The notes under the pieces were generated by a model. It had not been told where the DNA came from, made no database searches, and saw nothing but the letters and a program-made list of their open reading frames with translations. Position numbers and translations under genes: made by a program. Below, piece after piece: positions 5,713-61,504 of a stretch of DNA of 64,000 bases; within the stretch, counting starts at the first letter, position 1, and every line of letters begins with the position of its first letter. The DNA is from Bacteroidetes bacterium UBA7674 (GTDB lineage Bacteria; Bacteroidota; Bacteroidia; Chitinophagales; Chitinophagaceae), in assembly GCA_002483105.1 (NCBI GenBank), contig DLHG01000011.1:190497-254496 (forward strand). The letters are read 5' to 3'.

Positions 5713-7830
5713 TTATAGTTCTATCCATGCCTTGGTCTTAAGGCTGTCTATTGCGGCAATGCTTGCGCGTGATGTGTTGATGAGTTCTTCTATGGGTATC
5801 AGTGCGCTGCCGCCTGTCTTTATTTTTTCCATCAGCAATTTGAACTGCGCGTTATGTCCCTTATCCTGGCTGGCCGACTCAGAAGAGAAATTGTTGAATC
5901 CAAAGCCTTTCAGCTTCTTCCAGTTCTCCATCACCAGGGTTCTTTCCTGGCTATAGACTTCTACACGTTCTTTCTCGTATGCTTTGCTGCCGTTGGCGAA
6001 GTAATTGATCACAGCATTGGAACCATTCTCATACTGTAACAGTATCGTAGCGTTGTCTGTATTCTCTGCCGGATGAACACCCATTGCATTCATACACACT
6101 GCTTTCACCAGCGAACCGGTTAGATATGTGCAGAGGTCTATAAAGTGGCAGGCTTCCCCTATTATACGCCCCCCACCTGTTTCCATATCGTGCAGCCAGT
6201 TGTTAGCAGGTATGTACCCTGCGTTTACGTTGGCAACAATATTCATGGGTGCTTCTCCATTGCCCAGCAGACGTTTCATCTTCACTGCCAGCGATGCGAA
6301 ACGACGATTATAACCTACGCTCAGCGTCTGATTGTTTTGTTCATAAGCATCTATCACACCATCCAGCTCTTCATGCGTCAGTGCCAATGGCTTTTCTACA
6401 AACACATGTTTCTTTGCCTTCAGTGCTTCTTCCACCATATGCGCATGTTGGTTGTGCCTGGTGGTGATGAATACGATGTCTATGTCACTATCCTGTAGTA
6501 TGCTTTTATAATCCGTTGTGGCACCGCCTATGCCATGTTTCTTCGCAAGCGTTACGCCCGAGAGTCCCGCTGCGCTGGCTATTGTTTTAATATCTGTATT
6601 GCAGGCTTTCAATGCAGGTAATACAATGGCTCCTGTGAAATTCCCTGAGCCTATGATGCCCGCTATACCTTTCTGCCCGTTGAAACTACGCTCACTCAAC
6701 TTGATGGTATGTTCCAGCGGTGTATTGTCATTATAACTAATGATGGTCGCAATAGAGTTGGGTTTACTCATGTTGCCATACACCTTCCGGTAATCGCTCA
6801 GGGGTATTCGTTCTGTTATCAGCGATTGTACTTCCAGTTGTCCGCTTGCCAGTGCTTGCAGCACGGTTTCAAAATTTCGTTTCTCTGTCCAACGCACAAA
6901 GCCAATAGGGTAGTCAACACCTTTTTGTTCATACACACTATCATATCTCCCCGGCCCGTAAGAGCAGCTCACCTGGAAGCTCAGTTCTTTTTCAAAGAAG
7001 TCTGCACGGCTAATGTTCAGTCCCACTACACCTACCAATACTATGCGCCCGCGCTTGCGGCTCATCTGTGCTGACTGTGCTATTATATCATCGCCTTTAC
7101 TTGAGGCTGTTATAATCACTGCATCTGCACCTATCCCATTAGTGAGAGAGGTGACGAATTTTACAGTATCTGTTCCTTCACCAGGGTTCACAGTAATGAT
7201 ACCTTTCGCTGCTGCCAGCAATAATTTATTGCTGTCGTAGTCTATACCTATCACACGGCAACCGTTCGCTTTCAGTAGTTGTGCGGTCAGTTGCCCTATC
7301 AGGCCCATACCTACTACCACGACTGTTTCGCCAAATGTCGGGTTCACCAATCTAATGCCTTGCAAGCCTATGGCACCTATCACGGTAAAGGCTGCTTCCT
7401 CATCACTTATCTCATCCGGTATTTTCGCCACAAGGTTCTGTGGTATGCACACTATCTCCGCATGATTGCCATTAGAGGCTACGCGGTCACCTATTTTAAA
7501 TTCAGTTACGCCTTTGCCTATCGCTATCACTTTACCTACGTTGCAGTAGCCCAGTGGTATAGGTTGCCCCAGTTTATTGAAAACAGCGTTGATGGTTGGT
7601 TTAAGTCCGTCGGTCTTTATTTTGTTCAGCACCATTTTCACCCTGTCGGGTTGCTGACGTGCTTTGTTTATCCATCCTGCTTTGCCAAACTCTACCAGCA
7701 TACGTTCCGTTCCCAGCGATAACAAGCTACGACTGGTGCGTATCAGCACGGCGCCGTTCCTTACCATTGGGGCAGGTACGTCTTCAAGTATGGTATCTCC
7801 GTTTTTTAGGTCCTGGATGATCTGTTTCAT
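5713..7830 (-). CDS. bi-domain oxidoreductase (zinc-type alcohol dehydrogenase/MDR N-half fused to Gfo/Idh/MocA C-half)
   Basis: 705 aa; MDR-like N-half with Rossmann VVVVGMGLIGQL; second Rossmann GIAGIIGSGNFTG plus EKP motif (VFVEKPLA) of Gfo/Idh/MocA. Confidence 0.75.
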   Translation of the reverse strand: MKQIIQDLKNGDTILEDVPAPMVRNGAVLIRTSRSLLSLGTERMLVEFGKAGWINKARQQPDRVKMVLNKIKTDGLKPTINAVFNKLGQPIPLGYCNVGKVIAIGKGVTEFKIGDRVASNGNHAEIVCIPQNLVAKIPDEISDEEAAFTVIGAIGLQGIRLVNPTFGETVVVVGMGLIGQLTAQLLKANGCRVIGIDYDSNKLLLAAAKGIITVNPGEGTDTVKFVTSLTNGIGADAVIITASSKGDDIIAQSAQMSRKRGRIVLVGVVGLNISRADFFEKELSFQVSCSYGPGRYDSVYEQKGVDYPIGFVRWTEKRNFETVLQALASGQLEVQSLITERIPLSDYRKVYGNMSKPNSIATIISYNDNTPLEHTIKLSERSFNGQKGIAGIIGSGNFTGAIVLPALKACNTDIKTIASAAGLSGVTLAKKHGIGGATTDYKSILQDSDIDIVFITTRHNQHAHMVEEALKAKKHVFVEKPLALTHEELDGVIDAYEQNNQTLSVGYNRRFASLAVKMKRLLGNGEAPMNIVANVNAGYIPANNWLHDMETGGGRIIGEACHFIDLCTYLTGSLVKAVCMNAMGVHPAENTDNATILLQYENGSNAVINYFANGSKAYEKERVEVYSQERTLVMENWKKLKGFGFNNFSSESASQDKGHNAQFKLLMEKIKTGGSALIPIEELINTSRASIAAIDSLKTKAWIEL

Positions 7831-32867: not shown

Positions 32868-34190
32868 CTACTTCTTCCTAAAAAACAACCTTATCGGCAC
32901 CCCACTAAAATTATAGTGCGCCCTTATCTTGTTCTCCAGGAAATTCTTATACGGCTCCTTCACCGACTCAGGGAAATTCGTATAGAATGCAAAACTCGGC
33001 ACCACCGTAGGCACCTGCATGATATACTTGATCTTTATCGCATGGCCACGTGTCATCGGCGCATTGTACTTCTCTATTTCTTTACCCAGCGTCTCGTTCA
33101 GTTCCGATGTCATGATGCGGCGCTTACGGTTCTCATTCACTTCCAACGCTTTTTCCAAAGCCTGGAATATCCTTTGTTTCTCCGTAGCCGAAATAAATAT
33201 TACCGGTACATCCGTGAACGGTGCTATCTTTTCCTTCAACTCCTTTTCATAGTCACGCGCAGTATTCGTTTCTTTCTTCGTCACAAGGTCCCACTTGTTC
33301 ACCAGTATCACCACGCCCTTGCCCTTACGCGTTGCCAGGCTGAAGATATTTACGTCCTGCGCAGTGATGCCTTTTTCAGCATCTATCAGTTGCAGGCATA
33401 CATCCGCTTCATCCATCGCACGTATCGCACGAATCACCGAGTAGAACTCCAGGTCCTCGTTCACGTTCTTCTTCTTCCTCAGTCCCGCAGTATCTATCAG
33501 TATAAAGTCCCTGTTGAACAGGTTGTAGTGTGTATGTATCGTATCACGTGTAGTACCCGCTATATCCGAAACGATCATGCGTTCCTGGCCCACCAACGCA
33601 TTCAGCAAAGTCGACTTACCCGCATTCGGCTGACCGATAATAGCGATCTTCGGCGGCTGATCATCAGGATTCACCTCAGCTGTAGGAGCGTCAGCAGGAA
33701 TCTTATCCGTTACGGCATCCAGCAGGTCACCGGTACCACTACCCGAGATAGACGAGATAAAATATACATTTTCCAGCCCCAGCGAGTAGAACTCAGTGGC
33801 TTCCAGCGCGCGGGTAGGGTTGTCCACCTTATTCACAACCAATAACACCGGCTTTTTGCTGCGACGCAGTATGTTGGCCATATCCGAATCCTGGTCGGTG
33901 ATGCCCGTTTCTGTATCTACGACGAACATCAGCAGATCAGCCTCATCCAGGGCTATTTGCACCTGTTTTTTGATCTCCTGCTCGAAAACGTCCTTGGAAT
34001 TATTGACAAAACCACCTGTATCTATCACGTTAAATACCTTACCGTTCCAGTCGGCGATGCCGTACTGGCGGTCACGGGTCACACCGCTCACGTCATCTAC
34101 TATAGCCTTACGCTGTTCCAGCAACCTGTTGAACAAGGTTGATTTCCCCACATTGGGCCTTCCTACTATCGCTACGGTAAATCCCGGCAT
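32868..34190 (-). CDS. der: ribosome-associated GTPase Der (EngA)
   Basis: 440 aa; two G domains with GRPNVGKST and GQPNAGKST P-loops, DTGG/DTAG, NKVD/NKWD, KH-like C-terminus. Confidence 0.92.
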   Translation of the reverse strand: MPGFTVAIVGRPNVGKSTLFNRLLEQRKAIVDDVSGVTRDRQYGIADWNGKVFNVIDTGGFVNNSKDVFEQEIKKQVQIALDEADLLMFVVDTETGITDQDSDMANILRRSKKPVLLVVNKVDNPTRALEATEFYSLGLENVYFISSISGSGTGDLLDAVTDKIPADAPTAEVNPDDQPPKIAIIGQPNAGKSTLLNALVGQERMIVSDIAGTTRDTIHTHYNLFNRDFILIDTAGLRKKKNVNEDLEFYSVIRAIRAMDEADVCLQLIDAEKGITAQDVNIFSLATRKGKGVVILVNKWDLVTKKETNTARDYEKELKEKIAPFTDVPVIFISATEKQRIFQALEKALEVNENRKRRIMTSELNETLGKEIEKYNAPMTRGHAIKIKYIMQVPTVVPSFAFYTNFPESVKEPYKNFLENKIRAHYNFSGVPIRLFFRKK

Positions 34191-34280
34191 TAACTTTGAA
34201 TTTTAGCGTGCAAAGGTACGTCAATTATATGGGTTTTTTGGCTATGAATTGGGTAAATTGCTGTTAAATGCACCAAGACT

Positions 34281-34323
34281 CTCCTCCTTTTTTCAAGGAG
34301 GAGTACCCGCAGGGGGAGGTGGT
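34281..34323 (+). repeat. 43-bp repeat ctcctccttttttcaaggaggagtacccgcagggggaggtggt
   Basis: 42 of 43 identical to the reverse complement of 39650-39692; internally palindromic (cctcctt...aaggagg). Confidence 0.8.
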
Positions 34324-34685
34324 CTGCGCCACACAGGCAAAAGCCCCACCAAACCTGTCATTGCGGGCCTGACCCGCAACCTCCTGAAATGTAGCGACTC
34401 AGACGATAAAAGAACGGAACCCCAAAAAACTCCCCGCCCTATTTTCAGGGCGGGGTGGGTCTGCGCCAGACAAGCCAGCCCCTCTCCGCTGTCGGCCTGA
34501 GCGGAGTCGAATGGATTGTTAAGGATTGCAGTCATAGCTAGATCTAGAAAGGACGCAAAAAAATAATGTGAGCAATTATCAGTCATAGAAACAATTCTGG
34601 CTTGCGGCAGTTTGTGGGTTTTATAGAATAAGTACATTAACGTAAATTCATCGCAGAATTCGATAATCGAATTGTAAATTAGAGC

Positions 34686-35813
34686 ATGGACAAATCAGAA
34701 ATTAGATTTCTCAAGCAGAAAGATTATAAGTTTATTAAAGAGCTGAGCAGAGGGGGCTTTGGCGAAGCGATTTTAATAAATGATGAAACTATAGGCGAGG
34801 ATTTCGTTTGTAAGAAATATTCGCCGTTTTATGAAGAAGATAAAGAAGTATACTACAAAAATTTTGTTCAAGAGATTAAACTATTACATTTATTAAACCA
34901 CAGAAATATTGTTAGAGTTTTTAACTATTATTTATACCCTGAAAAATCTACTGGTTATATTTTGATGGAATATATTAATGGCTCATCAATCGACAAATTT
35001 CTTCAGAATAATCCTGACAAAATAAAAGACGTCTTTCTGGAAACAATAAATGGTTTTCAGCATTTAGAAGGGCTTCAAATACTCCATAGAGACATACGAC
35101 CTCAGAATATTTTGGTGACTGATCAAGGTATACCAAAAATCATAGATTTCGGCTTCGGTAAACAGATGCAATTCCTAGAAGAAGATTTCGGAAATAGTAT
35201 TAGCTTAAATTGGAGATACACTCCGCCTTCCGAATTTTCGCTAAAAGTTTATGATTATAAAACTGAAGTTTATTTTGTAGGAAAGTTATTTGAGGAGATA
35301 ATTAATGAAAATCAATTGCCGGCTTTCCCATATGCGTCGGCTATTCGTAAGATGATTGCTCATAACTATGATGAGAGACTTTCTTCATTCCTTGATGTTA
35401 GTCGAGAGATTTCGACTGTTGATTCGACCGAAGTTTCATTTAGTTACATGGATAAGTATGCATACCAACAGTTTGCCGAAAATTTAAGTAAGATCATCGC
35501 TAGCATGGATGAAAATTGTCAGTACAATTCAGACGTTGATGATATAAATCAGAAACTACAAACTGTTTATAATAATTCATTGCTAGAAGAATATCTGCAA
35601 AATAGTGCCGCCTTATTGCGATGTTTTTTAAAGGGTACTTATAAGTATTACAACTCAAAAACATTTCCAATTAGTACATTGCGAGATTTTGTTATACTTT
35701 TTAAGAATACGCCTAAAGATCTTCAAAAAATTATTTTGAATAATATTTGGCTTAGGTTCGACTCAATAGGTAGGACCTCAAAAGTATCTAGTGCTGATGA
35801 TTTACCATTTTAA
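34686..35813 (+). CDS. Hanks-type Ser/Thr protein kinase with uncharacterised C-terminal domain
   Basis: 375 aa; Gly-loop SRGGFGEA, FVCKK lysine, QEIKLL Glu, HRDIRPQN (HRD at 35085-35093), DFG (35145-35153), YTPPSE; about 140 C-terminal aa with no motif I recognise; AT-rich. Confidence 0.75.
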   Translation: MDKSEIRFLKQKDYKFIKELSRGGFGEAILINDETIGEDFVCKKYSPFYEEDKEVYYKNFVQEIKLLHLLNHRNIVRVFNYYLYPEKSTGYILMEYINGSSIDKFLQNNPDKIKDVFLETINGFQHLEGLQILHRDIRPQNILVTDQGIPKIIDFGFGKQMQFLEEDFGNSISLNWRYTPPSEFSLKVYDYKTEVYFVGKLFEEIINENQLPAFPYASAIRKMIAHNYDERLSSFLDVSREISTVDSTEVSFSYMDKYAYQQFAENLSKIIASMDENCQYNSDVDDINQKLQTVYNNSLLEEYLQNSAALLRCFLKGTYKYYNSKTFPISTLRDFVILFKNTPKDLQKIILNNIWLRFDSIGRTSKVSSADDLPF

Positions 35814-35844
35814 TACATACGCCGGAGTTGCCTTAAATCTGTTT

Positions 35845-36576
35845 TTAAGTAGGATGTATTGAGTTAATAAAATACTGCATTGTATTTTCTTCATAATAGA
35901 AAATTGAATGTAGACGTTGGTTATTATATAAGGTATAGCTTTGGTCAGATATCTTTATGTTTCGCTGGTGATTAACAGTAGTACGTTTCGAGATAAAAAA
36001 AGCGTTAATTGTTACGTCAATAATATCTCTGGGGTGCATCAAATTGTTTTTCGTCGGTTGAGTTGACAAAGGGATGTCAGAATATGAGAAGTGTTTAAAG
36101 GCATGAAAAACTCCGCCCGTAAATACAGATTTTCTAGAGTCTCTCTTCTCTATGTCAATTTTTCTAAATAATTCCATTCGAAGAGCATCGCCAATCACCT
36201 CGCCATCCTCTACTTCGAAAATGTATGCAACCTTATCTCTAGATAGAAAATTTCCAAAGGAATCGAGATTAAACATTGGGTCAGGGTTGATATCATAGAG
36301 CGCTTTCAATACGCTGTAGGCATTATATTTTCCGAAACAATCCGGATGTTCTTTTACGGCCAATATTAATACGTTCTCAATAATTTCAATAAAAATTCTT
36401 GAAGGTGCTACTATGAATTTTCTGTCTCCGATAAATACAGGATAGTAGTAACCCACAAAATCACCTGCCAGGTAATGACTTCTCTTTTCGTGTACTCCCA
36501 GTTTTGACGCTTTCACTTCGAAATTTCTTCTAATTGAAAGAATCTCTTGTTGAGAGATATTAGGGATGATTATCAC
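35845..36576 (-). CDS. hypothetical protein (no recognisable domain)
   Basis: 243-aa ORF, AT-rich, no signal peptide or TM; convergent with the kinase (31 nt between stops). Confidence 0.45.
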   Translation of the reverse strand: MIIIPNISQQEILSIRRNFEVKASKLGVHEKRSHYLAGDFVGYYYPVFIGDRKFIVAPSRIFIEIIENVLILAVKEHPDCFGKYNAYSVLKALYDINPDPMFNLDSFGNFLSRDKVAYIFEVEDGEVIGDALRMELFRKIDIEKRDSRKSVFTGGVFHAFKHFSYSDIPLSTQPTKNNLMHPRDIIDVTINAFFISKRTTVNHQRNIKISDQSYTLYNNQRLHSIFYYEENTMQYFINSIHPT

Positions 36577-36672
36577 AAATAATTATTTGATTGTTATTAG
36601 TGCTTTTTTCCAGTAGTTCAATTTATCCCGCGTCGTATGGCGTATTGAGATGCAAAAAAAATGATACGTATA

Positions 36673-37569
36673 TTACTCCTCGGTAATTGTCGTTTCGTTA
36701 TCCTTCACAATAACAAATAATATTGGCAACCCCTCCGCATCTTGTATTTCTACTGAGTAATTCTCATGTTCCTGAAAACTGTTAAATAGATTTAGAACAT
36801 TAATTAATGCACTACCTCTAGTTATTGAACTAGGGATTTTACCACTACCTATATTCAGTAAGTCATGGACTATGCAATTCCAATTGGTATCTCCTTGGTT
36901 AGCAGTTGTAAAGGGTAATCCCATGTCACCATTTAGCATTCGGGCTAAAAAAACTCCCCATGTAGAACTAATGCCGTTGCTCCATGGCACAAACCTCAAT
37001 CGCGGACTAGGGTTTATTACTAAATAGTGAAGGGCTTTCGGTCTCCCTTGACTATAATCAGGAAAATGTCGAAGCGGAGATGGTGTTATGGAGTTTCCGT
37101 AGATAGTAGCGGGCATATCGAAAGAAATGTCGCTGTCATATAAACACTTTTGCGATTGTGATGTAAGTTGTTCATCCATTTTGGCCTGTGCTAAAACGGC
37201 ACTGCGATAGATGGGCTTTTTATTTGCATCAAGTAGGCAGAATATTACCATCATATCTCCCAGTTCGCAAGCGGGAGTATCGCCTGTGCAATTTCTTACA
37301 GAATTTACTGTTCGTTGAACACGGGGTTTCTGGTGAATATATACAGATGCGAACTTTACCTCGTATCCACCACCACTTAGTAATGGCGACAAGTTTCTAT
37401 TTAGATAGTCAACACCAACACTTCTGTCAAGTAGGTAACTTCTTACGATTTGAGGTTCTGAGCGATTAGTATTGATGCCGTTCCAAGAGCTATCTCCAAT
37501 TGAAATTATATTTCCCCATTGAGCTTGGATATGTCTAATAAATTTGTCAAATTCTGGAGTCATGGTCAT
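36673..37569 (-). CDS. hypothetical protein, possible PD-(D/E)xK-like core
   Basis: 298-aa ORF; CELGDMMVIFCLL ... AVLAQAKM (E102, D105, Q128-x-K130; nt 37180-37266) fits D...(E/Q)xK spacing; weak. Confidence 0.45.
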   Translation of the reverse strand: MTMTPEFDKFIRHIQAQWGNIISIGDSSWNGINTNRSEPQIVRSYLLDRSVGVDYLNRNLSPLLSGGGYEVKFASVYIHQKPRVQRTVNSVRNCTGDTPACELGDMMVIFCLLDANKKPIYRSAVLAQAKMDEQLTSQSQKCLYDSDISFDMPATIYGNSITPSPLRHFPDYSQGRPKALHYLVINPSPRLRFVPWSNGISSTWGVFLARMLNGDMGLPFTTANQGDTNWNCIVHDLLNIGSGKIPSSITRGSALINVLNLFNSFQEHENYSVEIQDAEGLPILFVIVKDNETTITEE

Positions 37570-37973
37570 GTAGTTAAATTGATACTCTGCTTACGACTAA
37601 GTAGCTTGATTTCGTTGAAGTGGTAGCCAATCTCCGGAATGGCCTGTTCCTTGCCAAAATACACATCTCAAAATCACCAAACAACCGTCTTTCGACGGAT
37701 AAAACCACATTTATTTGGATATCTCTTTTTCCCCACCTCCCACCATCTTCCTAACTTTACAATCGAACAATCAGGGATACATTTCATTTCCGAGATCCCA
37801 ACGAATTACACAAGTTCCTTGCCTACCGGCAGGCATACAGTTCAGAAATTATTCCCAAACTATAAAACCAATCTAATGGCCAATCTAAAAGAAAACGCCC
37901 CTAGTTCGGCTTTGTCTCTTTGAATACGTCGCAATGGCAGTCAATCTTCTGATTGACGAATGGGAAGCCCCCC

Positions 37974-38885
37974 TCACTCATAATGCTCATACTCCCAACC
38001 CTTCACAAACTCCCGCTTGCCACCCGTCAGCTCAAACTCCTGTATGGGCAGTCCATTGCTGTTGGTGATGATCTCGCCGTTCACGGGCTTTCGCTGCACC
38101 CGCTTGCCCGTTTCGCCTGTGTACGACCACGCAGACCGCATGATACGGGCGTTCCCCTTATAGGTGATTGTCGTCACCACCCGGATATCCGTCACCCTTT
38201 CTGCCTCTTTATAGCCCAATGCCGACACCGAGATAGTCTTCACTTCCTTCCCGTTCTTATACCAGGTACTATCCGCGTAGATGGTCTTGTTGTCGCGGAT
38301 CTTCGTAATATATTCGTGGTCTTTGGTCTTATACGTCTCGATGGTTTCTTTGAGTTCCACCCGGAAGTTCAGGTTTGGGTATTCGCGCGTCAGTTCCTCC
38401 GCTTTCAGGAAAGATGTTCCCCGTGAGTGCGTCACCAGTTGCCGGTGACTCTTATATGTTATGTCCGTCCTTTTTACATAGGTGGTGTCATTAGCTATAA
38501 AGTCGGGCATTTGCTCTATAGAGACAAAACAGGTTACCCTATGTGCGGTGTCATACTGCACTACGAATATTTTATACGCTGTATCGCCGGTGCCGGCTAA
38601 GCGGTCATAGATCCTGCATATCTCGCCATCTTTGGTAGGTGTGTAAACATATCGCGTGGAGAGTTTTGCATCGTTACCGATCCTATACTCTTGTAATCGC
38701 CCTTTCCGGTCGTATTGGTAGGTGCCGGTCAGCTCGCCCTGTTTGCCTTTTTCTGTTACTTTATACACCTTCTTCAGTGCATATTCCGGCTCCCCGGGCA
38801 AGTAGTCACTAATGTCATAGCCTTGCCCGAATGACGTTGATATGGATAGCAGAAGAAACAGTAAAGGGAGTATATAGGTCTTCAT
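37974..38885 (-). CDS. hypothetical secreted protein
   Basis: 303 aa; signal peptide MKTYILPLLFLLLSISTSFGQ; Tyr/Thr/Lys-rich beta-type sequence. Confidence 0.5.
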   Translation of the reverse strand: MKTYILPLLFLLLSISTSFGQGYDISDYLPGEPEYALKKVYKVTEKGKQGELTGTYQYDRKGRLQEYRIGNDAKLSTRYVYTPTKDGEICRIYDRLAGTGDTAYKIFVVQYDTAHRVTCFVSIEQMPDFIANDTTYVKRTDITYKSHRQLVTHSRGTSFLKAEELTREYPNLNFRVELKETIETYKTKDHEYITKIRDNKTIYADSTWYKNGKEVKTISVSALGYKEAERVTDIRVVTTITYKGNARIMRSAWSYTGETGKRVQRKPVNGEIITNSNGLPIQEFELTGGKREFVKGWEYEHYE

Positions 38886-39067: not shown

Positions 39068-39148
39068 CAGAAAAGTAAATACAGGTTCCAGCAACGGTTC
39101 ATTTTACTTACAGAAAAGTACATTTTTCTTCCACAAAAGTGCATTTTC
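39068..39148 (+). repeat. three direct 15-17 nt iteron-like repeats CA(G/C)AAAAGT(A/G)(A/C)AT
   Basis: cagaaaagtaaatac 39068-39082; cagaaaagtacattttt 39111-39127; cacaaaagtgcattttc 39132-39148; partial inverted copy cattttactta at 39100-39110. Confidence 0.55.
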
Positions 39149-39573
39149 TATTGGGGAATGGAAGTTTGTGGAGTTTTGGTTTCGGGTGGTGTAGTTTCGA
39201 GGCCGGGTGGGACGATCAGTTCGTAGTCGTGTGATACGCTGCGCCATCCATCCTTTATATTGTCCCAGGCATTGATCAGCCCGATGATGCGTGTGCGCGC
39301 ATCGAGTTCTTCTTTGGTGGGAAAACGCAGGGCGGGTTCGCGCTTGCTGATGTTGAGGGAGATGACGCGGAGCTCTTCGTAGAGGCGATGTATCTCGACC
39401 TGTGAGGAATGGAAGTTGGCTTTCTTGATGGCTCTCCAGTTGCCCTCGATAGCCCAGGTGGATACTGTCTTCTCGGAAACGCCTAGTTCTCTTGCGATCT
39501 GGCATTGTCTCCATGCTGTGGTGAAATAGAGTTCGCGTGCTCTTTCTTTTTCGTTTTCTTTAGTGTTTGACAT
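39148..39573 (-). CDS. small HTH DNA-binding protein (terminase-small-subunit / gpP-like HTH)
   Basis: 141 aa; RARELYFTTAWRQCQIARELGVSEKTVSTWAIEGNW helix-turn-helix. Confidence 0.5.
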   Translation of the reverse strand: MSNTKENEKERARELYFTTAWRQCQIARELGVSEKTVSTWAIEGNWRAIKKANFHSSQVEIHRLYEELRVISLNISKREPALRFPTKEELDARTRIIGLINAWDNIKDGWRSVSHDYELIVPPGLETTPPETKTPQTSIPQ

Positions 39574-39649: not shown

Positions 39650-39692
39650 ACCACCTCCCCCTTCGGGTACTCCTCCTTGAAAAAAGGAGGAG
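39650..39692 (-). repeat. inverted partner of the 43-bp repeat at 34281
   Basis: accacctcccccttcgggtactcctccttgaaaaaaggaggag; 42 of 43 match after reverse complement. Confidence 0.8.
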
Positions 39693-39930
39693 AGTTGCGG
39701 GATTTATGATTGACCCGGCTCCATAGATAGATTGTAAAGGTACGAAGGTGGTGCCGTGTGGAGAAAAAGACATATCCACATAGGATACACATGAGGTGGT
39801 GGGTAGCTTCAAAAACGGAAGTTGGTTCGCTCTTTGTCTTCATCGCAGCTTTTCAACAGCCTTTCGACGGGGCTCAGGGGGACAACGCTATTGAGTTTAG
39901 ATTGTTTCATTCTTCGCAATGACACGAGTA

Positions 39931-49269: not shown

Positions 49270-49354
49270 AACGGTTCTATTATGGGTATGTAATATACGC
49301 CATTTCTTAGAGGGTAGTCTGAACCGGGATTTTTGGGAATTGGTTGTGGCTGTT

Positions 49355-49402
49355 GCAAACTGCCATTATTTACTGCCACAAGTGAAAAACACTTGCGGCA
49401 GC
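49355..49402 (+). repeat. repeat module X (hairpin ctgccacaagtg-aaaaa-cacttgcggcag)
   Basis: Copies at 53498-53544 and partial at 51812-51838. Confidence 0.7.
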
Positions 49403-49495
49403 AGTAGGAGGATTTGTAGACGCATTACAAACGCTATTCCCGTGCATCCTCGTTGCAAACGAGGACGAGATGGGTGGGGAGCACTTGCGTGAGTG

Positions 49496-49583
49496 GACAC
49501 CACCCCCCAAAACTCACCGCACCGCTATCGCGGAGGCGTTGAGTTTTGACCCCTCCTCCGAAAGGAGGGGTATCGTGATTGTT
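49496..49583 (+). repeat. repeat module Y (two hairpins: aaaactca.cgcaccgc...gagtttt and cccctcctcc-gaa-aggagggg)
   Basis: About 95 percent identical by eye to 53547-53633; first hairpin also at 46816-46856. Confidence 0.8.
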
Positions 49584-53309: not shown

Positions 53310-53497
53310 AACTATGATTTTATCGTTTTGAAATATTTACATTTGATAATGTAAACCTAGATCAGCGGATAGTATCAATAGTTATTAAAAAAACGGTTTT
53401 TATATGTGAAAAATACCCTACCAAATATTTGGAGAGTTTTGTACGTGGGCTTTGGGATAGGTATTGATCAAGGGGGGCTGTAGCCCGCCTGGCAGAA

Positions 53498-53544
53498 GCA
53501 AACTGCCATTATTTATTACCACAAGTGAAAAACACGTGCGCGAG
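53498..53544 (+). repeat. repeat module X
   Basis: gcaaactgccattatttattaccacaagtgaaaaacacgtgcg, matches 49355-49397. Confidence 0.7.
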
Positions 53545-53546
53545 TA

Positions 53547-53633
53547 GACACCACCCCCAAAACTCAACGCACCGCTATCGCGGAGGCGTCGAGTTTTGAC
53601 CCCTCCTCCGAAAGGAGGGGTATCGCGATTGTT
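53547..53633 (+). repeat. repeat module Y
   Basis: Matches 49496-49583. Confidence 0.8.
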
Positions 53634-53659
53634 TTGGTTTTGGGCTTGTCGGGAGGTAG

Positions 53660-53763
53660 GTAGTGGCATCGATTGAGCTTCAGGCTAATTGCTAACGAGC
53701 ACAGCCCTGCGTTGTATTTGTTTGGTTTAGGTTACGCTGACGCTAAACTTAAACCAGTGGGGG
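53660..53763 (+). repeat. repeat module Z; also the likely terminator of the minus-strand defence-like operon
   Basis: Matches 51843-51946; ends 2 nt before the stop codon (53765-53767) of the CBS-HEPN gene. Confidence 0.8.
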
Positions 53764-53764
53764 A

Positions 53765-54808
53765 TTATTTGGTTTTTACTTTTAAGGTCGCTGTTATCGT
53801 ATTTAGAAATGAGACAGTTTGGCGCAAAAGATCAAGGTCTTGTGATGTGATTCCGTCGGGATCAAAATGCATAACATCATTTCGTATTTTTCTCACTTCT
53901 TCTAATTGTTTTGCAATAAGTGTCCTGTCAATATTTAACTTTAATTTTTCAAACTTTTTGGGATCTTCAATTATCCTAACATACTGTCCGAATGTTAGGT
54001 CTGCTAGGTTCTTTATCTCCTTAGTTTTCTCAATATTCGACATTGAAGCATTTAGTTCTTCAGCGTCAAATTTTTGATCGAAGAGTTTTCTGATATGATT
54101 TTCAATTTGTTCAATTATTAGAAACGGTTCTGCCATTGCAATAAATTGTTCTCCAATATCAGTGATAGTTACAATGCCACTTATAGTCTTATCTTTCTGT
54201 CTAACAAGAACAACTTCTTTGTCTAATACAAACTTCACTGCGCTGAACAAAGGCTCATCGTAATTTAAAATTATAACCTCGTCTTTACAGTCTACTGCTT
54301 TAACACAATGTTTGCCTAGGGAAATTGCCCTGCCGATTGATTTCCAGCTAACTATTCCATCTACCTCTCGTTGCCCTGATAGTATTGGCAATTGAGAGAA
54401 ATCGTGCAATAACATTAAGGTAATAGCCTCGTTTAAAGATGTTTCACGATTAATGCTTATGAGGCCTGTTCCCAAGCCAGTTTCCTTCACTTTATTGATA
54501 TTCGCTGCCTTTAATAGACTTATTCGGGGAGTCGGATCTCTATCCTCAAATTCACTTTCTTTACTTTTCGTCGATAGCTTTGGGCGAGGTTTTATTTCGA
54601 TTTCTCCATAAAACCATGCACTTGCAATATCTGGCTCGCTTACAACGTCATACTTATTAAGTAGAAAGTTTATTTTGTCAATTACTTTCCACCCACGTCT
54701 AGCAACTCCTAAATATGCAGTTGCTATATAGGGATAAGTCGTAATTGATTTTTTAGTTTTATGAACTTCACTTAATATCTCTTCGAAATTTAGCTTGTTG
54801 TCACTCAT
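53765..54808 (-). CDS. CBS-pair protein with C-terminal HEPN (Rx4H) domain
   Basis: 347 aa; CBS1 LISINRETSLNEAITLMLLHDFSQLPIL...VDGIVS, CBS2 VIILNYDEPLFSAVKFVL...ISGIVTITDI; C-terminal EEVRKIRNDVMHFD, with R309-N-D-V-M-H314 at nt 53867-53884. Confidence 0.65.
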   Translation of the reverse strand: MSDNKLNFEEILSEVHKTKKSITTYPYIATAYLGVARRGWKVIDKINFLLNKYDVVSEPDIASAWFYGEIEIKPRPKLSTKSKESEFEDRDPTPRISLLKAANINKVKETGLGTGLISINRETSLNEAITLMLLHDFSQLPILSGQREVDGIVSWKSIGRAISLGKHCVKAVDCKDEVIILNYDEPLFSAVKFVLDKEVVLVRQKDKTISGIVTITDIGEQFIAMAEPFLIIEQIENHIRKLFDQKFDAEELNASMSNIEKTKEIKNLADLTFGQYVRIIEDPKKFEKLKLNIDRTLIAKQLEEVRKIRNDVMHFDPDGITSQDLDLLRQTVSFLNTITATLKVKTK

Positions 54809-54843
54809 AGAGATTTTATAAAAACAGGTTTTGGGAACTAGTA

Positions 54844-55413
54844 TTATATATTTGCTGAAACAAACTCATATAATCCTGAAAATGACTTACACTTTGTTTT
54901 TACTGTATTTAGGTTTAAGTTCTTAGCAAGCACCGTATTATGCTTTGTATTAATGTACACTTTGGAATTATCTGAAAAGGTTCTAATAAGTCGTCCTAAA
55001 GTTTCTTTTGGGGAATCTATTGTTTCGGGATTCCCAGTGATTTTGGGACTTTTTTTAAGGTTAAATGATTTTTTGATGGAAGCTGGGTCAGCCAGTATCC
55101 AAGCTTCCATCTCCTGTATAGGAATGCATATGTAGGAATGTCTGATCGGATTAGGTTTTATATTTTTTTCAAGTAATAGTTTCAGATCCTGGATATTATT
55201 GCTGTCGAGGTCATGAATTAATATTAAAACGTTACATCCTCTTAGTTGTAATTGTTTTGCCCAATCTGAACATTTTCTTTTGATTTTCCCGCAACCTCTA
55301 CCTACAAATCTTTTATAACTAAGATTAGACTTGCCAGTAATTCTCGCGATAAGCTCTTTTAGTGTATCTACGTCACTTTCATCTTCAGCGATAATGCCTA
55401 TTTTTTTACTCAT
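54844..55413 (-). CDS. DUF4276-like, TOPRIM-fold-like protein
   Basis: ORF trimmed to Met12 (ATG 55411-55413), 189 aa; IGIIAEDESD (Glu), NVLILIHDLDSN (DxD), IPIQEMEAWILAD; start overlaps the ATPase stop (ATGAGTAA). Confidence 0.6.
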   Translation of the reverse strand: MSKKIGIIAEDESDVDTLKELIARITGKSNLSYKRFVGRGCGKIKRKCSDWAKQLQLRGCNVLILIHDLDSNNIQDLKLLLEKNIKPNPIRHSYICIPIQEMEAWILADPASIKKSFNLKKSPKITGNPETIDSPKETLGRLIRTFSDNSKVYINTKHNTVLAKNLNLNTVKTKCKSFSGLYEFVSANI

Positions 55414-56635
55414 TCTCAAAACCTCCTTCCTTCCAATATTCACCAAGATTTCCAGATTCTGTTAAATAGATTTTCAATGCTTGATAATCATTCTTTGACA
55501 GAGCAGTTGTCAATTTTGAGGCAGTAGTTCCTTTGCCTTTTTCTTTTTTTACAATTACAATATTCTCTGGAGATAATTTATCTAATACAAAATCCGAGTG
55601 CGTACTTATTATTATTTGTTTATTTTCATTGTCAAGTATTAAGCTTAATACACTATTGAGCAGACCATGATGAACACAGACTTCTGGTTCTTCTATTAAA
55701 AGGATTCTGTTTTCGTCTGTTAGAATATAAAAAACTAAGGCAAGGGTTTTGAATGTGCCTTCTGATAATTGATTTGGAGACAATAAATACCCATCGATAT
55801 CTATACATGGTACAATTATCTGTCTGCTTCTTTCTATCTTAAGAATTTTCCCTCCAGACTTAACTTTATAACTATTAGAAGGAATATCTACCTCATCGAA
55901 TCGAAGGTCATTAATCAAACCAATGCCATTTGTGTTAACCGTTGAAATGAATTTTTCAAAAGTTTTTTTATTATTCTTATATGTAAAGTATAAATCACTT
56001 AAAAATATCTCGTGAGTTGAGCTTCGTAAATTAGATCGCCCAAGACGATGGTCTTCAATTTCGATTGATATTGGACACTTCGTAGGGTCTGAGAACTGAC
56101 TTGCGCTATAATAACTTTGATGTTTTAAATATTTAACTACGGAGATAATAATCTTGATGTCATCTCTAGTACAGTCGATTTGTCTAGTATCATAATAGAA
56201 GAAAATTCTCTCATTTATTTGTCTAGGATGATGTCTGTACAATTCAAACGCTTCAGGGATAATATCAATCCATTTTCCATTACCATTTATATTTCTAAGA
56301 TTAATTTTTAAAAATGAAGCCTTCACTTCGTCATTATTCTTGTCGTCTGTTTCAATAAAAATGTCACCTTTTATATATATATCTTTACCATTGTCATTAA
56401 GTGTCATTTGAATATTCGTACTAGTTTCAAATCCATATTGTTTCCTGAATTCTTTAATAGAACGCGAATATCGATCCCCTCGAGTCTTCTTAAATAATTG
56501 TAGTGCATTTAAAATATTGCTTTTGCCTACTCCATTTATCCCTATTAGGCATGTGAGTTTGGGATTTAAATCAAATTTAGTTTTCAAGCATGACCTATAA
56601 TTGTCAACTTGGAATTTTGTTATTCTCATTTTCAA
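55406..56635 (-). CDS. ABC/SMC/RecF-like ATPase (AAA_15/AAA_21 type)
   Basis: 409 aa; Walker A GINGVGKS (56519-56542), LSEGTFK signature-like, Walker B ILLIEEPE, H-loop ISTHSD; no TM segment. Confidence 0.8.
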   Translation of the reverse strand: MKMRITKFQVDNYRSCLKTKFDLNPKLTCLIGINGVGKSNILNALQLFKKTRGDRYSRSIKEFRKQYGFETSTNIQMTLNDNGKDIYIKGDIFIETDDKNNDEVKASFLKINLRNINGNGKWIDIIPEAFELYRHHPRQINERIFFYYDTRQIDCTRDDIKIIISVVKYLKHQSYYSASQFSDPTKCPISIEIEDHRLGRSNLRSSTHEIFLSDLYFTYKNNKKTFEKFISTVNTNGIGLINDLRFDEVDIPSNSYKVKSGGKILKIERSRQIIVPCIDIDGYLLSPNQLSEGTFKTLALVFYILTDENRILLIEEPEVCVHHGLLNSVLSLILDNENKQIIISTHSDFVLDKLSPENIVIVKKEKGKGTTASKLTTALSKNDYQALKIYLTESGNLGEYWKEGGFENE

Positions 56636-56738
56636 GAATGTTGTGGGATAAAAGTATAATTCTATAATTACAAATTAACCAGTCAAAAGACGGTACTCAT
56701 CAATTATTTTGCCCCTACCATATATGCACAAAATATCG

Positions 56739-60265: not shown

Positions 60266-61504
60266 ATGGCCACACAAAAAAAACCGGCTGCCAAGCCAAT
60301 CAAGAATGCAAAAGCATCTGCAAAACCTGCAAAGAAGGCCGCACCGGCCAAAAAAGTTGTGGCGACTAATAAGAAGGGAAATGTAGCGAAGAAAGCCGCT
60401 CCAGCTAAAAAGGTAGTAAAACCTGTAGCAAAAAAGGCCGCACCCGCTAAGAAGACTGAGAACAAAAAGGCGGCGCCTGCTCCTAAAAAAGTGGCACCTG
60501 CGAAGGCTAATTCAAAAAAAGGAACAAAAACTGTGAGTAAAGCAAACGATAAAGCAAAGAAGGCAGCACCTGCAAAGAAGGCTGCTCCGGCAAAGAAAGC
60601 GGCAGTTGCACCTAAGAAGGCAGCACCTGCCAAGAAAGCTGCTCCTGCTAAAAAGGCGGCACCTGCTCCTAAGAAAGCGGCTCCTGTAGCAAAGAAGGCA
60701 GCACCTGCTCCTAAGAAAGCAGAAGTGAAAAAAGCACCTGCAAAAGTAGAAGCGAAAAAAGCTGCTCCTGTAAAACCAACACCTGCTCCTGCTAAGGCGG
60801 AAATAAAAAAGGGCCCGGTAGCGAAACCCCAGGAAGCGCCTATGAAAGGCTCACCTGCTGATAAGGCGCCCGAAGCAGCCCCTGCAAAGAAAGGCAAGAA
60901 AGTAAAAGCACCTGTGAAGAAAATAATAGTACAGACTATTACACATACTTCATCGAGGCCGATGCCTAACCGCCAGGCTTTGCGTGAAGAAAAGAAACCA
61001 ACGGTAGTGATCGCTCACCGCCGCCTAGAGAATAAATCAAAGAAAGACGACAATAACAAAACAATGGTGAGTTACCAACCGGAAACTTACCGTTCAATAT
61101 TAGACGAACCACAACAACAAACTGGACCAGTGTACAGATATAGCGACGAGGAACTTAACGAGTTCAAAGAATTGATAACAGGACGCCTGGAAGCAGCGCG
61201 TAAAGAGTTAGTTTACCTTCAAGGGTTGATAACACGTAAGGATGAAGCGGGTACAGAAGATACTGAGAACCGCTACATGAATATGGAAGATGGTAGCGGC
61301 GCTATGGAACGTGAGCAATTAGCTCAGCTTGCGAGCCGCCAGATACAGTTCATCAACCACCTGGAAAAGGCGATGATGCGTATTGAAAACAAAACGTATG
61401 GTATTTGCCGTGTAACGGGTAAGCTGATAGACAAAGCACGCCTTCGTGCTGTGCCGCATGCTACCTTGAGCATTGAGGCCAAGAATACAATGACGAAGAA
61501 GTAA
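60266..61504 (+). CDS. DksA/TraR-family regulator with about 285-aa Lys/Ala/Pro-rich (histone H1-like) N-terminal extension
   Basis: 412 aa; aa 1-217 are AKKAAPAKK-type repeats; C-terminal aa 290-412 (nt 61133-61504) YRYSDEELNEFKELI ... RIENKTYGICRVTGKLIDKARLRAVPHATLSIEAK matches the Bacteroidota DksA/TraR type. Confidence 0.7.
   Translation: MATQKKPAAKPIKNAKASAKPAKKAAPAKKVVATNKKGNVAKKAAPAKKVVKPVAKKAAPAKKTENKKAAPAPKKVAPAKANSKKGTKTVSKANDKAKKAAPAKKAAPAKKAAVAPKKAAPAKKAAPAKKAAPAPKKAAPVAKKAAPAPKKAEVKKAPAKVEAKKAAPVKPTPAPAKAEIKKGPVAKPQEAPMKGSPADKAPEAAPAKKGKKVKAPVKKIIVQTITHTSSRPMPNRQALREEKKPTVVIAHRRLENKSKKDDNNKTMVSYQPETYRSILDEPQQQTGPVYRYSDEELNEFKELITGRLEAARKELVYLQGLITRKDEAGTEDTENRYMNMEDGSGAMEREQLAQLASRQIQFINHLEKAMMRIENKTYGICRVTGKLIDKARLRAVPHATLSIEAKNTMTKK

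Follow-up and report, generated by a model that had tools for sequence, protein, structure and literature searches.

When a protein kinase gene and two genes without a nameable domain are found side by side in a patch of foreign DNA, do they form one defence system, or have separate genes come to rest in the same place? The question is raised by an AT-rich segment of 3.1 kb in a stretch of 64,000 nucleotides (nt) from Bacteroidetes bacterium UBA7674 (NCBI GenBank assembly GCA_002483105.1, contig DLHG01000011.1, positions 190,497 to 254,496 of the forward strand), which is called here the window. The segment, referred to below as the islet, carries a gene for a Hanks-type kinase and, on the opposite strand, orf243 and orf298, which encode proteins of 243 and 298 amino acids (aa); all positions are collected in Table 1. 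The reading preferred here, held with moderate confidence, is that the islet is of the defence-island type and was acquired horizontally, and that it consists of three unrelated, independently moving cassettes and no multi-gene system. Relatives of each of the three genes are found in defence islands or mobile elements, and it is from this gene context that a defence function is predicted for them.

Composition and co-occurrence of the three genes

The guanine plus cytosine (GC) content falls from about 0.49 in der, the left neighbour of the islet, to 0.30-0.35 over positions 34600-36800, and is back at 0.43-0.51 by 37600-38000. Over the whole islet it is 0.350, about three standard deviations below the mean of 3-kb segments of the window (0.439, standard deviation 0.027), and just one further region, at 53-57 kb, is equally AT-rich. 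GC at third codon positions (GC3) is 0.287 in the kinase gene, 0.332 in orf243 and 0.328 in orf298, in contrast to 0.601, 0.618 and 0.585 in the flanking genes der, orf303 and orf141, so the foreign patch comprises just the three genes. Judged by composition, the islet is probably horizontally acquired. An earlier inspection of this DNA, the sequence-only reading, had come to the same view, and on the compositional side its claim holds, as GC and GC3 are atypical across all three genes. Its hand counts of G+C (13 of 60 nt at 34861-34920 and 32 of 60 at 33601-33660) are exact, the listing of open reading frames (ORFs) contains all three as it had described them, and none of the three products shows a transmembrane segment or signal peptide. 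A search for exact matches to der recovered a single contig, of 1.6 kb, which belongs to the same sample.

The sequence-only reading had gone further and proposed a kinase-centred module with undescribed partners, to be checked by a survey of homologues. The proposal is not supported here. The kinase and the orf243 product were compared by tblastn with 32 loci of the orf298 family, and the orf298 product with 13 loci holding kinase or orf243 relatives; no match was obtained in either direction, and the three genes are thus co-located in none of the 45 other loci covered. When all ORFs neighbouring orf298 relatives were clustered, the orf298 family itself was the only one held in common with the window.

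The kinase

The kinase matches the Pfam family Pkinase (PF00069) with E = 8.8e-31 and 107.7 bits against a cut-off of 31.7. The match defines a kinase domain at about residues 14-230; the C-terminal part that comes after it, about 140 aa up to a closing DDLPF, is conserved as well. The five motifs listed in the sequence-only reading were all found (SRGGFGEA at residue 21, FVCKK at 40, HRDIRPQN at 134, DFG at 154 and TPPSE at 179), and the features of a Hanks-type Ser/Thr kinase are complete: the Gly-rich loop, the VAIK Lys, the alphaC Glu, HRD...N, DFG and an APE-like motif. In an alignment of 20 family members G23, G24, G26, K43, K44, E63, H134, R135, D136, N141, D154 and G156 are invariant, and the region outside the kinase domain is conserved through the final DDLPF. 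In a protein search limited to E <= 1e-10 the homologues number 2289, and the best 120 are full-length proteins of 365-392 aa, 48-57% identical; the sources named among these 120 are Bacteroidota (Flavobacterium, Paludibacter, Draconibacterium, Aquimarina, Flagellimonas and others) and Ignavibacteria. By its sequence, then, the kinase belongs to a family of proteins of about 372 aa that is large and tightly conserved in these two groups.

Among defence models, more than 20 PADLOC models of PD-T4-6 match the kinase with E values from 1e-12 to 4e-29, and in one of them (PDLC04042) positions 8-279 of 292 are covered (93%). The best single PADLOC match is mad6 (5e-35). The PD-T4-6 and mad6 matches are both at the level of the kinase domain. 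The NCBIfam scores stay far below their cut-offs, with 76.4 bits against 460 for MAD6 (NF047741), 21.2 against 990 for PglW (NF033442), a protein of about 1400 aa compared with 375 aa here, and 80.2 against 450 for the PknB/Stk1 PASTA kinase (NF033483), the window kinase having neither a transmembrane segment nor a PASTA domain.

Seven independent genomic contexts of the kinase family were read and no neighbour gene is common to them, from which the kinase is taken to be a solo, mobile cassette. One identical protein of 372 aa, P0112, has at least three distinct sets of neighbours, among which are CfrBI restriction-modification (R-M) genes, Mrr, AbiE, NB-ARC and an Hsp70/kinase-AAA locus, and the Flagellimonas copy lies within a small integrative element that also encodes an integrase, an excisionase-like helix-turn-helix (HTH) protein, Rep and a PIN protein. 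Two candidates for a conserved partner were considered and rejected: the genes for 211-234 aa directly downstream of the kinase in three genomes are unrelated to each other and to orf243, and the upstream genes for 423 and 428 aa in loci L053 and L058 are likewise unrelated. By analogy, the protein is most likely a single-gene abortive-infection kinase comparable to PD-T4-6 and staphylococcal Stk2. In such a mechanism the conserved C-terminal region would sense an infection cue, the kinase would then become active, and phosphorylation of host or phage proteins would lead to growth arrest.

P0112 is listed in 322 blocks of the collection and occupies positions 6001-7119 in each of loci L035-L039; in three of its neighbourhoods a tyrosine recombinase of the MrpR_C_cat type stands about 2 kb away. 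The arrangement suggests a recombinase-serviced cassette hotspot in Bacteroidales.

The 298-aa protein

Neither the orf298 product nor that of orf243 has a match in Pfam, NCBIfam, PHROGs or PADLOC, in agreement with the sequence-only reading, which could name no domain in either. The orf298 family is small: 42 homologues were found among 5.8 billion clusters, and the loci recovered are few, with 5 from 185,579 species genomes, 20 from metagenomes and 2 from viral contigs. Among the residues that never vary are E38, K72, S75, H79, C101, E102, D105, D114, Q128-A-K130, Q140-x-x-x-Y144, R167 and R176. The D...QxK arrangement, which had been noted earlier as compatible with a nuclease core, is real and conserved, D105, Q128 and K130 being invariant in 28 homologues. 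Because so many polar residues are invariant, the product is most likely an enzyme, as far as sequence conservation can tell. The AlphaFold2 (AF2) model is confident (predicted local distance difference test, pLDDT, 90; predicted template-modelling score, pTM, 0.90) and runs from the helix with E38 through one strand, a strand that starts after D105 and a strand ending with QxK to the QxxxY helix, an order compatible with the core of RecB/Cas4-like PD-(D/E)xK nucleases. A profile search of the sequences in the Protein Data Bank (PDB) with the family gave nothing at E <= 10, and the Pfam PD-(D/E)xK families do not match it even at E <= 10. That the protein is possibly a PD-(D/E)xK nuclease is a hypothesis, with which motifs and secondary-structure order are compatible but which Foldseek does not support, and the fold may be new. 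A Cys-His-Asp enzyme of the papain, transglutaminase or NAT-like kind, offered by the top Foldseek rows (probabilities <= 0.06, TM-score about 0.13), was rejected also because the order H79...C101...D105 does not suit it.

Two forms of the protein can be distinguished. The long forms, of about 420-480 aa and 40-70% identical to each other, are found beside type I R-M genes at all nine of their metagenomic loci considered (L018, L019, L021, L025, L026 and L028-L031), and in seven of the nine HsdR or HsdM is the direct neighbour. The gene order is often HsdR, the orf298 relative, HsdM, with HsdS also nearby, and the loci represent at least five lineages. At loci L022-L024 the genes that come after the relative encode a PLD-SNF2 helicase and an Eco57I-type methylase. 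The short forms measure about 300 aa, and the copy in the window is one of them, in which the C-terminal extension (about 120-140 aa) is missing. Their surroundings differ from place to place. In Ignavibacteriales (L002-L004) the gene lies upstream of a C5 methylase and a UvrD/PD-(D/E)xK protein, in Chryseobacterium (L005) it adjoins DUF6602, Mrr and patatin genes, and elsewhere its neighbours encode DUF5677 or DUF6414. The Ignavibacteriales and Algoriphagus short forms are 87% identical, which points to recent transfer.

Several further observations concern the family. The short forms of L002 (Ignavibacteriales, CP054182) on one side and of L007 (Algoriphagus jejuensis), L012 and L013 on the other are 84-94% identical, in different phyla and different neighbourhoods, which implies that the gene by itself was transferred horizontally very recently. 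Directly upstream of the long-form relative an FRG-domain gene is seen in L021 (8979-9863) and L027 (309-1157); in L021 this pair lies inside the type I R-M operon, and a small gene of the DUF6697 type stands between hsdM and hsdS in L021 and L029. Two relatives sit on predicted viral contigs (L033, 5677-6417, and L032), one of them directly upstream of a DUF2213 gene, so that the family is also cargo on contigs predicted to be viral or prophage.

There is precedent for defence systems among genes that lie inside type I R-M clusters, TgvAB of the Vibrio cholerae island VPI-2 being an example (PMC11411939). It is proposed tentatively, as a possibility that we rate below even, that the 298-aa protein belongs to a previously undescribed enzyme family of about 40 members with a fold that has no solved counterpart and with an anti-phage role, in which the long forms would be effectors wired into type I R-M operons (triggered, for example, by inhibition of restriction) and the short forms stand-alone cassettes spread by recent transfer between phyla. 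In the preferred reading the protein is possibly a divergent nuclease, the long forms may serve as a back-up effector beside restriction, and the short form would act by itself.

The 243-aa protein

A word-indexed search found five homologues of orf243, and an exhaustive HMMER search with the profile of these five raised the family to 209 representative clusters (E <= 1e-30 for 77), mostly stand-alone proteins of 230-260 aa. Comparison of 93 members with Pfam and PADLOC gave no family, and the profile search of PDB sequences no usable match. The conserved core reads FxGG[LV]FHAxKHFS, in which G155 and H162 are invariant; R133, R138 and H158 are nearly so, and H158, K161 and H162 form a conserved trio. 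The AF2 model has a pLDDT of 94, and its top Foldseek match is 7m5f chain C (probability 0.90, E = 0.06, 115 of 243 residues aligned, TM-score 0.44 on the target and 0.25 on the query), with HigB2 and the Nsp15 EndoU domain at lower ranks. The chain has the length of a CdiA-CT toxin domain, which its depositors describe as an RNase fold of the BECR superfamily (PMC8616854). The orf243 product may, on this structural resemblance, be a BECR-like RNase toxin, which is a lead and no assignment. The toxin would combine a BECR-like C-terminal half with the His-Lys-His motif; its family is undescribed and is carried on mobile elements. One member of the family is found on an integrative conjugative element (with integrase, ArdC-like protein and TrwC relaxase) beside CBASS and GmrSD genes; other relatives lie on short contigs beside a DUF5131-like gene.

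Weighing the alternatives

The alternative that survives best, although we consider it unlikely, denies the genes any part in defence: the islet would be what is left of a mobile element in decay, the kinase an ordinary signalling protein, and the two orphans selfish or neutral cargo, for example genes for addiction or element maintenance. Some kinase homologues do lie among metabolic or polysaccharide genes, relatives of orf243 are carried by a conjugative element, where they stand between the relaxase and an ArdC-like gene, neither orphan matches a known defence model, and the small phage-type DNA-binding protein orf141 is encoded 1.6 kb away, within the same 5.4 kb bracketed by a short repeat (see below). 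All three ORFs are, however, intact and keep the residues that are invariant in their families, the association of the orf298 long forms with type I R-M operons is strong and recurs among members 40-70% identical, and kinase copies are frequent in islands with R-M, abortive-infection (Abi) and Mrr genes.

The preferred reading of three defence-type cassettes has weak points too, and it is fair to set them out together. The PD-T4-6 label is unspecific, because its models are essentially kinase-domain-wide and catch a housekeeping PASTA kinase: it is also given to the core PASTA kinase of every Streptococcus thermophilus strain (PMC11514479). The mean column identity of the 20 aligned kinases, 64%, is unusually high for a defence gene, and two copies have non-defence surroundings, that of Paludibacter among amino-acid permeases and that of Bacteroidetes GWF2_42_66 in a glycosyltransferase cluster. 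As to orf298, Foldseek comparison of its model with PDB and BFVD returned neither a nuclease nor any other fold (best E 0.23 and TM-score 0.13, in PDB), and no R-M genes adjoin the copy in the window. The BECR match of orf243 is weak, as its E value tells, and stands amid generic alpha+beta folds (NTF2, cystatin).

It is distinctly improbable that orf298 and orf243 are the two genes of one operon, in which the orf298 family pairs with a variable downstream partner (orf243, DUF6602, DUF5677, DUF6414 or the C5 methylase) and the kinase is an unrelated neighbour. Such a downstream gene, in the same orientation, is present in most distinct short-form loci (the window together with contig L001, which holds the same genes, L002, L005, L008, L012, L032 and L033), and in six of them, the window counted, the gap is 33-186 bp. 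It is 96 bp between orf298 and orf243 in the window, where a pattern scan sees no terminator-like site. Co-orientation is nevertheless common in cassette arrays and hence weak evidence, L007 has a convergent neighbour, relatives of orf243 occur without any relative of orf298, and the downstream genes are mutually unrelated: they belong to different Pfam families, and distant kinship of orf243 with four of them (DUF6602, DUF5677, DUF6414 and the L032 ORF) was rejected at hhalign probabilities below 1%. Scans for sigma-70 promoters and terminators gave sites no commoner than in shuffled sequence, with a promoter model that is unsuited to Bacteroidota.

That the kinase, as sensor or effector, and the two orphans as its partners make up a single three-component defence or abortive-infection system is hardly tenable, for although the genes are contiguous in one compositionally uniform AT-rich patch and the kinase gene and orf243 converge at a distance of 31 bp, the absence of co-location in the 45 other loci largely refutes it, the kinase family is some 50 times larger than that of orf298 (2289 against 42 homologues), the kinase is convergent to the other two genes, and the neighbouring genes differ from one family to the next.

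Boundaries, repeats and other features of the window

No integrase was found in the ORFs examined (34-57 kb), as the sequence-only reading had stated, and neither an integrase nor a tRNA gene adjoins the islet. Comparison of the window with itself revealed a 46-nt element, ACTCTCCTCCTTTTTTCAAGGAGGAGTACCCG[C/A]AGGGGGAGGTGGT, which contains a hairpin of its own and is present in two inverted copies, 97.8% identical, against none expected in a pattern search. The copies bracket 5.4 kb with the kinase gene, orf243, orf298 and the host-like orf303 and orf141. An independent Logan short-read contig (L001, 5384 bp) runs from orf141 to the kinase gene, with all five genes on it, and its length is close to the distance between the repeats, an extent that fits an assembly break at the repeat. 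The element may be either REP-like (repetitive extragenic palindrome) or a relic of the ends that a mobile unit once had. Near the islet, the block of dispersed repeats of the sequence-only reading comes down to this one 46-nt element. The block was probably made up of the repeats at 49347-49583 and 53490-53763, which are direct, 58-105 nt long, 84-96% identical and about 4 kb apart; a hairpin among them, CCTCCTCCGAAAGGAGGGG, resembles the 46-nt element in style. Rfam comparison of the islet flanks yielded no structured RNA, just a chance microRNA match. A phage origin of the islet was considered and rejected, since the collection of viral contigs holds few relatives (two loci for orf298, two for orf243 and three for the kinase). 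The product of orf141, whose GC content is host-like, resembles small subunits of phage terminases or DNA-binding proteins and lies inside the repeat-bracketed 5.4 kb.

The second AT-rich island of the window, at 53700-56650, has a 3-kb GC minimum of 0.329. Here an ATPase gene and a 200-aa gene overlap, with a CBS-domain gene beside them. The pair matches the PADLOC models HEC-01A and HEC-01B, and the ATPase also the AbiLi, AriA and Old-type models, so that the two can be listed as a recognised candidate two-gene defence pair. At 60314-60709, tandem imperfect repeats of 18-21 nt encode a low-complexity protein segment rich in Lys, Ala and Pro (AKKAAP-like).

Table 1. Positions of the islet, its genes and other features in the window
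Feature	Position	Strand	Remarks
der	32868-34190	-	left flank of islet
46-nt repeat, left copy	34278-34323	+	contains hairpin; blastn self-comparison
AT-rich islet	34560-37620		compositionally foreign; GC 0.35, window mean 0.44
Hanks-type kinase gene	34686-35813	+	375 aa; ORF listing
orf243	35845-36576	-	243 aa; ORF listing
orf298	36673-37569	-	298 aa; ORF listing
orf303	37974-38885	-	303 aa, lipoprotein-like; right flank of islet
orf141	39148-39573	-	141-aa HTH protein; Pfam Terminase_5 2e-07, phrog_4151 2e-11
46-nt repeat, right inverted copy	39650-39695	-	aligned as 39695-39650; blastn self-comparison
CBS-domain gene	53765-54808		beside ATPase/200-aa pair
200-aa gene	54844-55446	-	overlaps ATPase gene
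AAA_15/AAA_21 ATPase gene	55406-56635	-	overlaps 200-aa gene

Significance

If the preferred reading is true, the locus is one more small islet of the defence type, and it points to three single-gene candidates that can be tested. The kinase would join a kind already known, that of solo defence-type Hanks kinases, and its family would extend kinase-based abortive infection, as represented by PD-T4-6 and Stk2, to Bacteroidota, a phylum that matters in the microbiomes of the gut and of the environment. The families of orf243 and orf298 both lie outside Pfam and PADLOC, and the latter can be called the most novel lead, as it joins an association with type I R-M genes to a structure that is predicted with confidence and resembles no solved one. 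No new multi-gene system is revealed, and the significance of the locus is that of a candidate list, short of a discovery.

Comparison with known systems

With MAD6 of the MADS system and PglW of BREX type 2 the window kinase shares a kinase domain, which in those systems serves phage defence, and mad6 is its top PADLOC match. It differs in that only the kinase domain aligns, with NCBIfam scores far under the cut-offs, and no other MADS or BREX gene, pglX and pglZ included, is present in the islet. The likeness to PD-T4-6, a single-gene Ser/Thr kinase defence system from the Escherichia coli pangenome (Vassallo et al. 2022, PMC9519451), and to Stk2 goes further. Like these, the kinase is stand-alone and cytoplasmic with all catalytic residues, no partner gene is conserved beside its relatives, many of which lie in defence islands or on mobile elements, and the PD-T4-6 models match it up to 4e-29, at the level of the kinase domain only. 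What sets it apart is the C-terminal region of about 140 aa with no assigned domain and a family specific to Bacteroidota and Ignavibacteria and unusually conserved.

The orf243 model has as its top Foldseek match (probability 0.90) the BECR toxin CdiA-CT of Serratia marcescens BWH57, and the RelE/HigB and EndoU toxins and nucleases are represented in its list by HigB2 and Nsp15 EndoU; H158-x-x-K161-H162 would recall the His/His/Lys chemistry of EndoU. In contrast to a typical BECR toxin, orf243 is accompanied by no cognate immunity or antitoxin gene and has no sequence similarity to the group, and the match itself (E 0.06, TM-score 0.25 on the query) takes in about 115 of the 243 residues.

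The orf298 protein recalls the PD-(D/E)xK nucleases of the RecB/Cas4 kind by the succession of a helix with E38, a strand starting at D105, the next strand with Q128-x-K130 and a following helix with Q140-x-x-x-Y144. The acidic residue of (D/E)xK is, however, replaced by an invariant Gln in the whole family, and Foldseek finds no nuclease for the model (best TM-score 0.13). PrrC of EcoprrI is a defence gene embedded in a type I R-M operon. To PrrC, GmrSD and the PADLOC models the orf298 family shows no similarity of sequence or fold, and the window copy differs from R-M-embedded defence genes in being a short form with no R-M neighbours. In gene context the long forms of the family are like PrrC and TgvAB, adjoining hsdR and hsdM in several divergent lineages.

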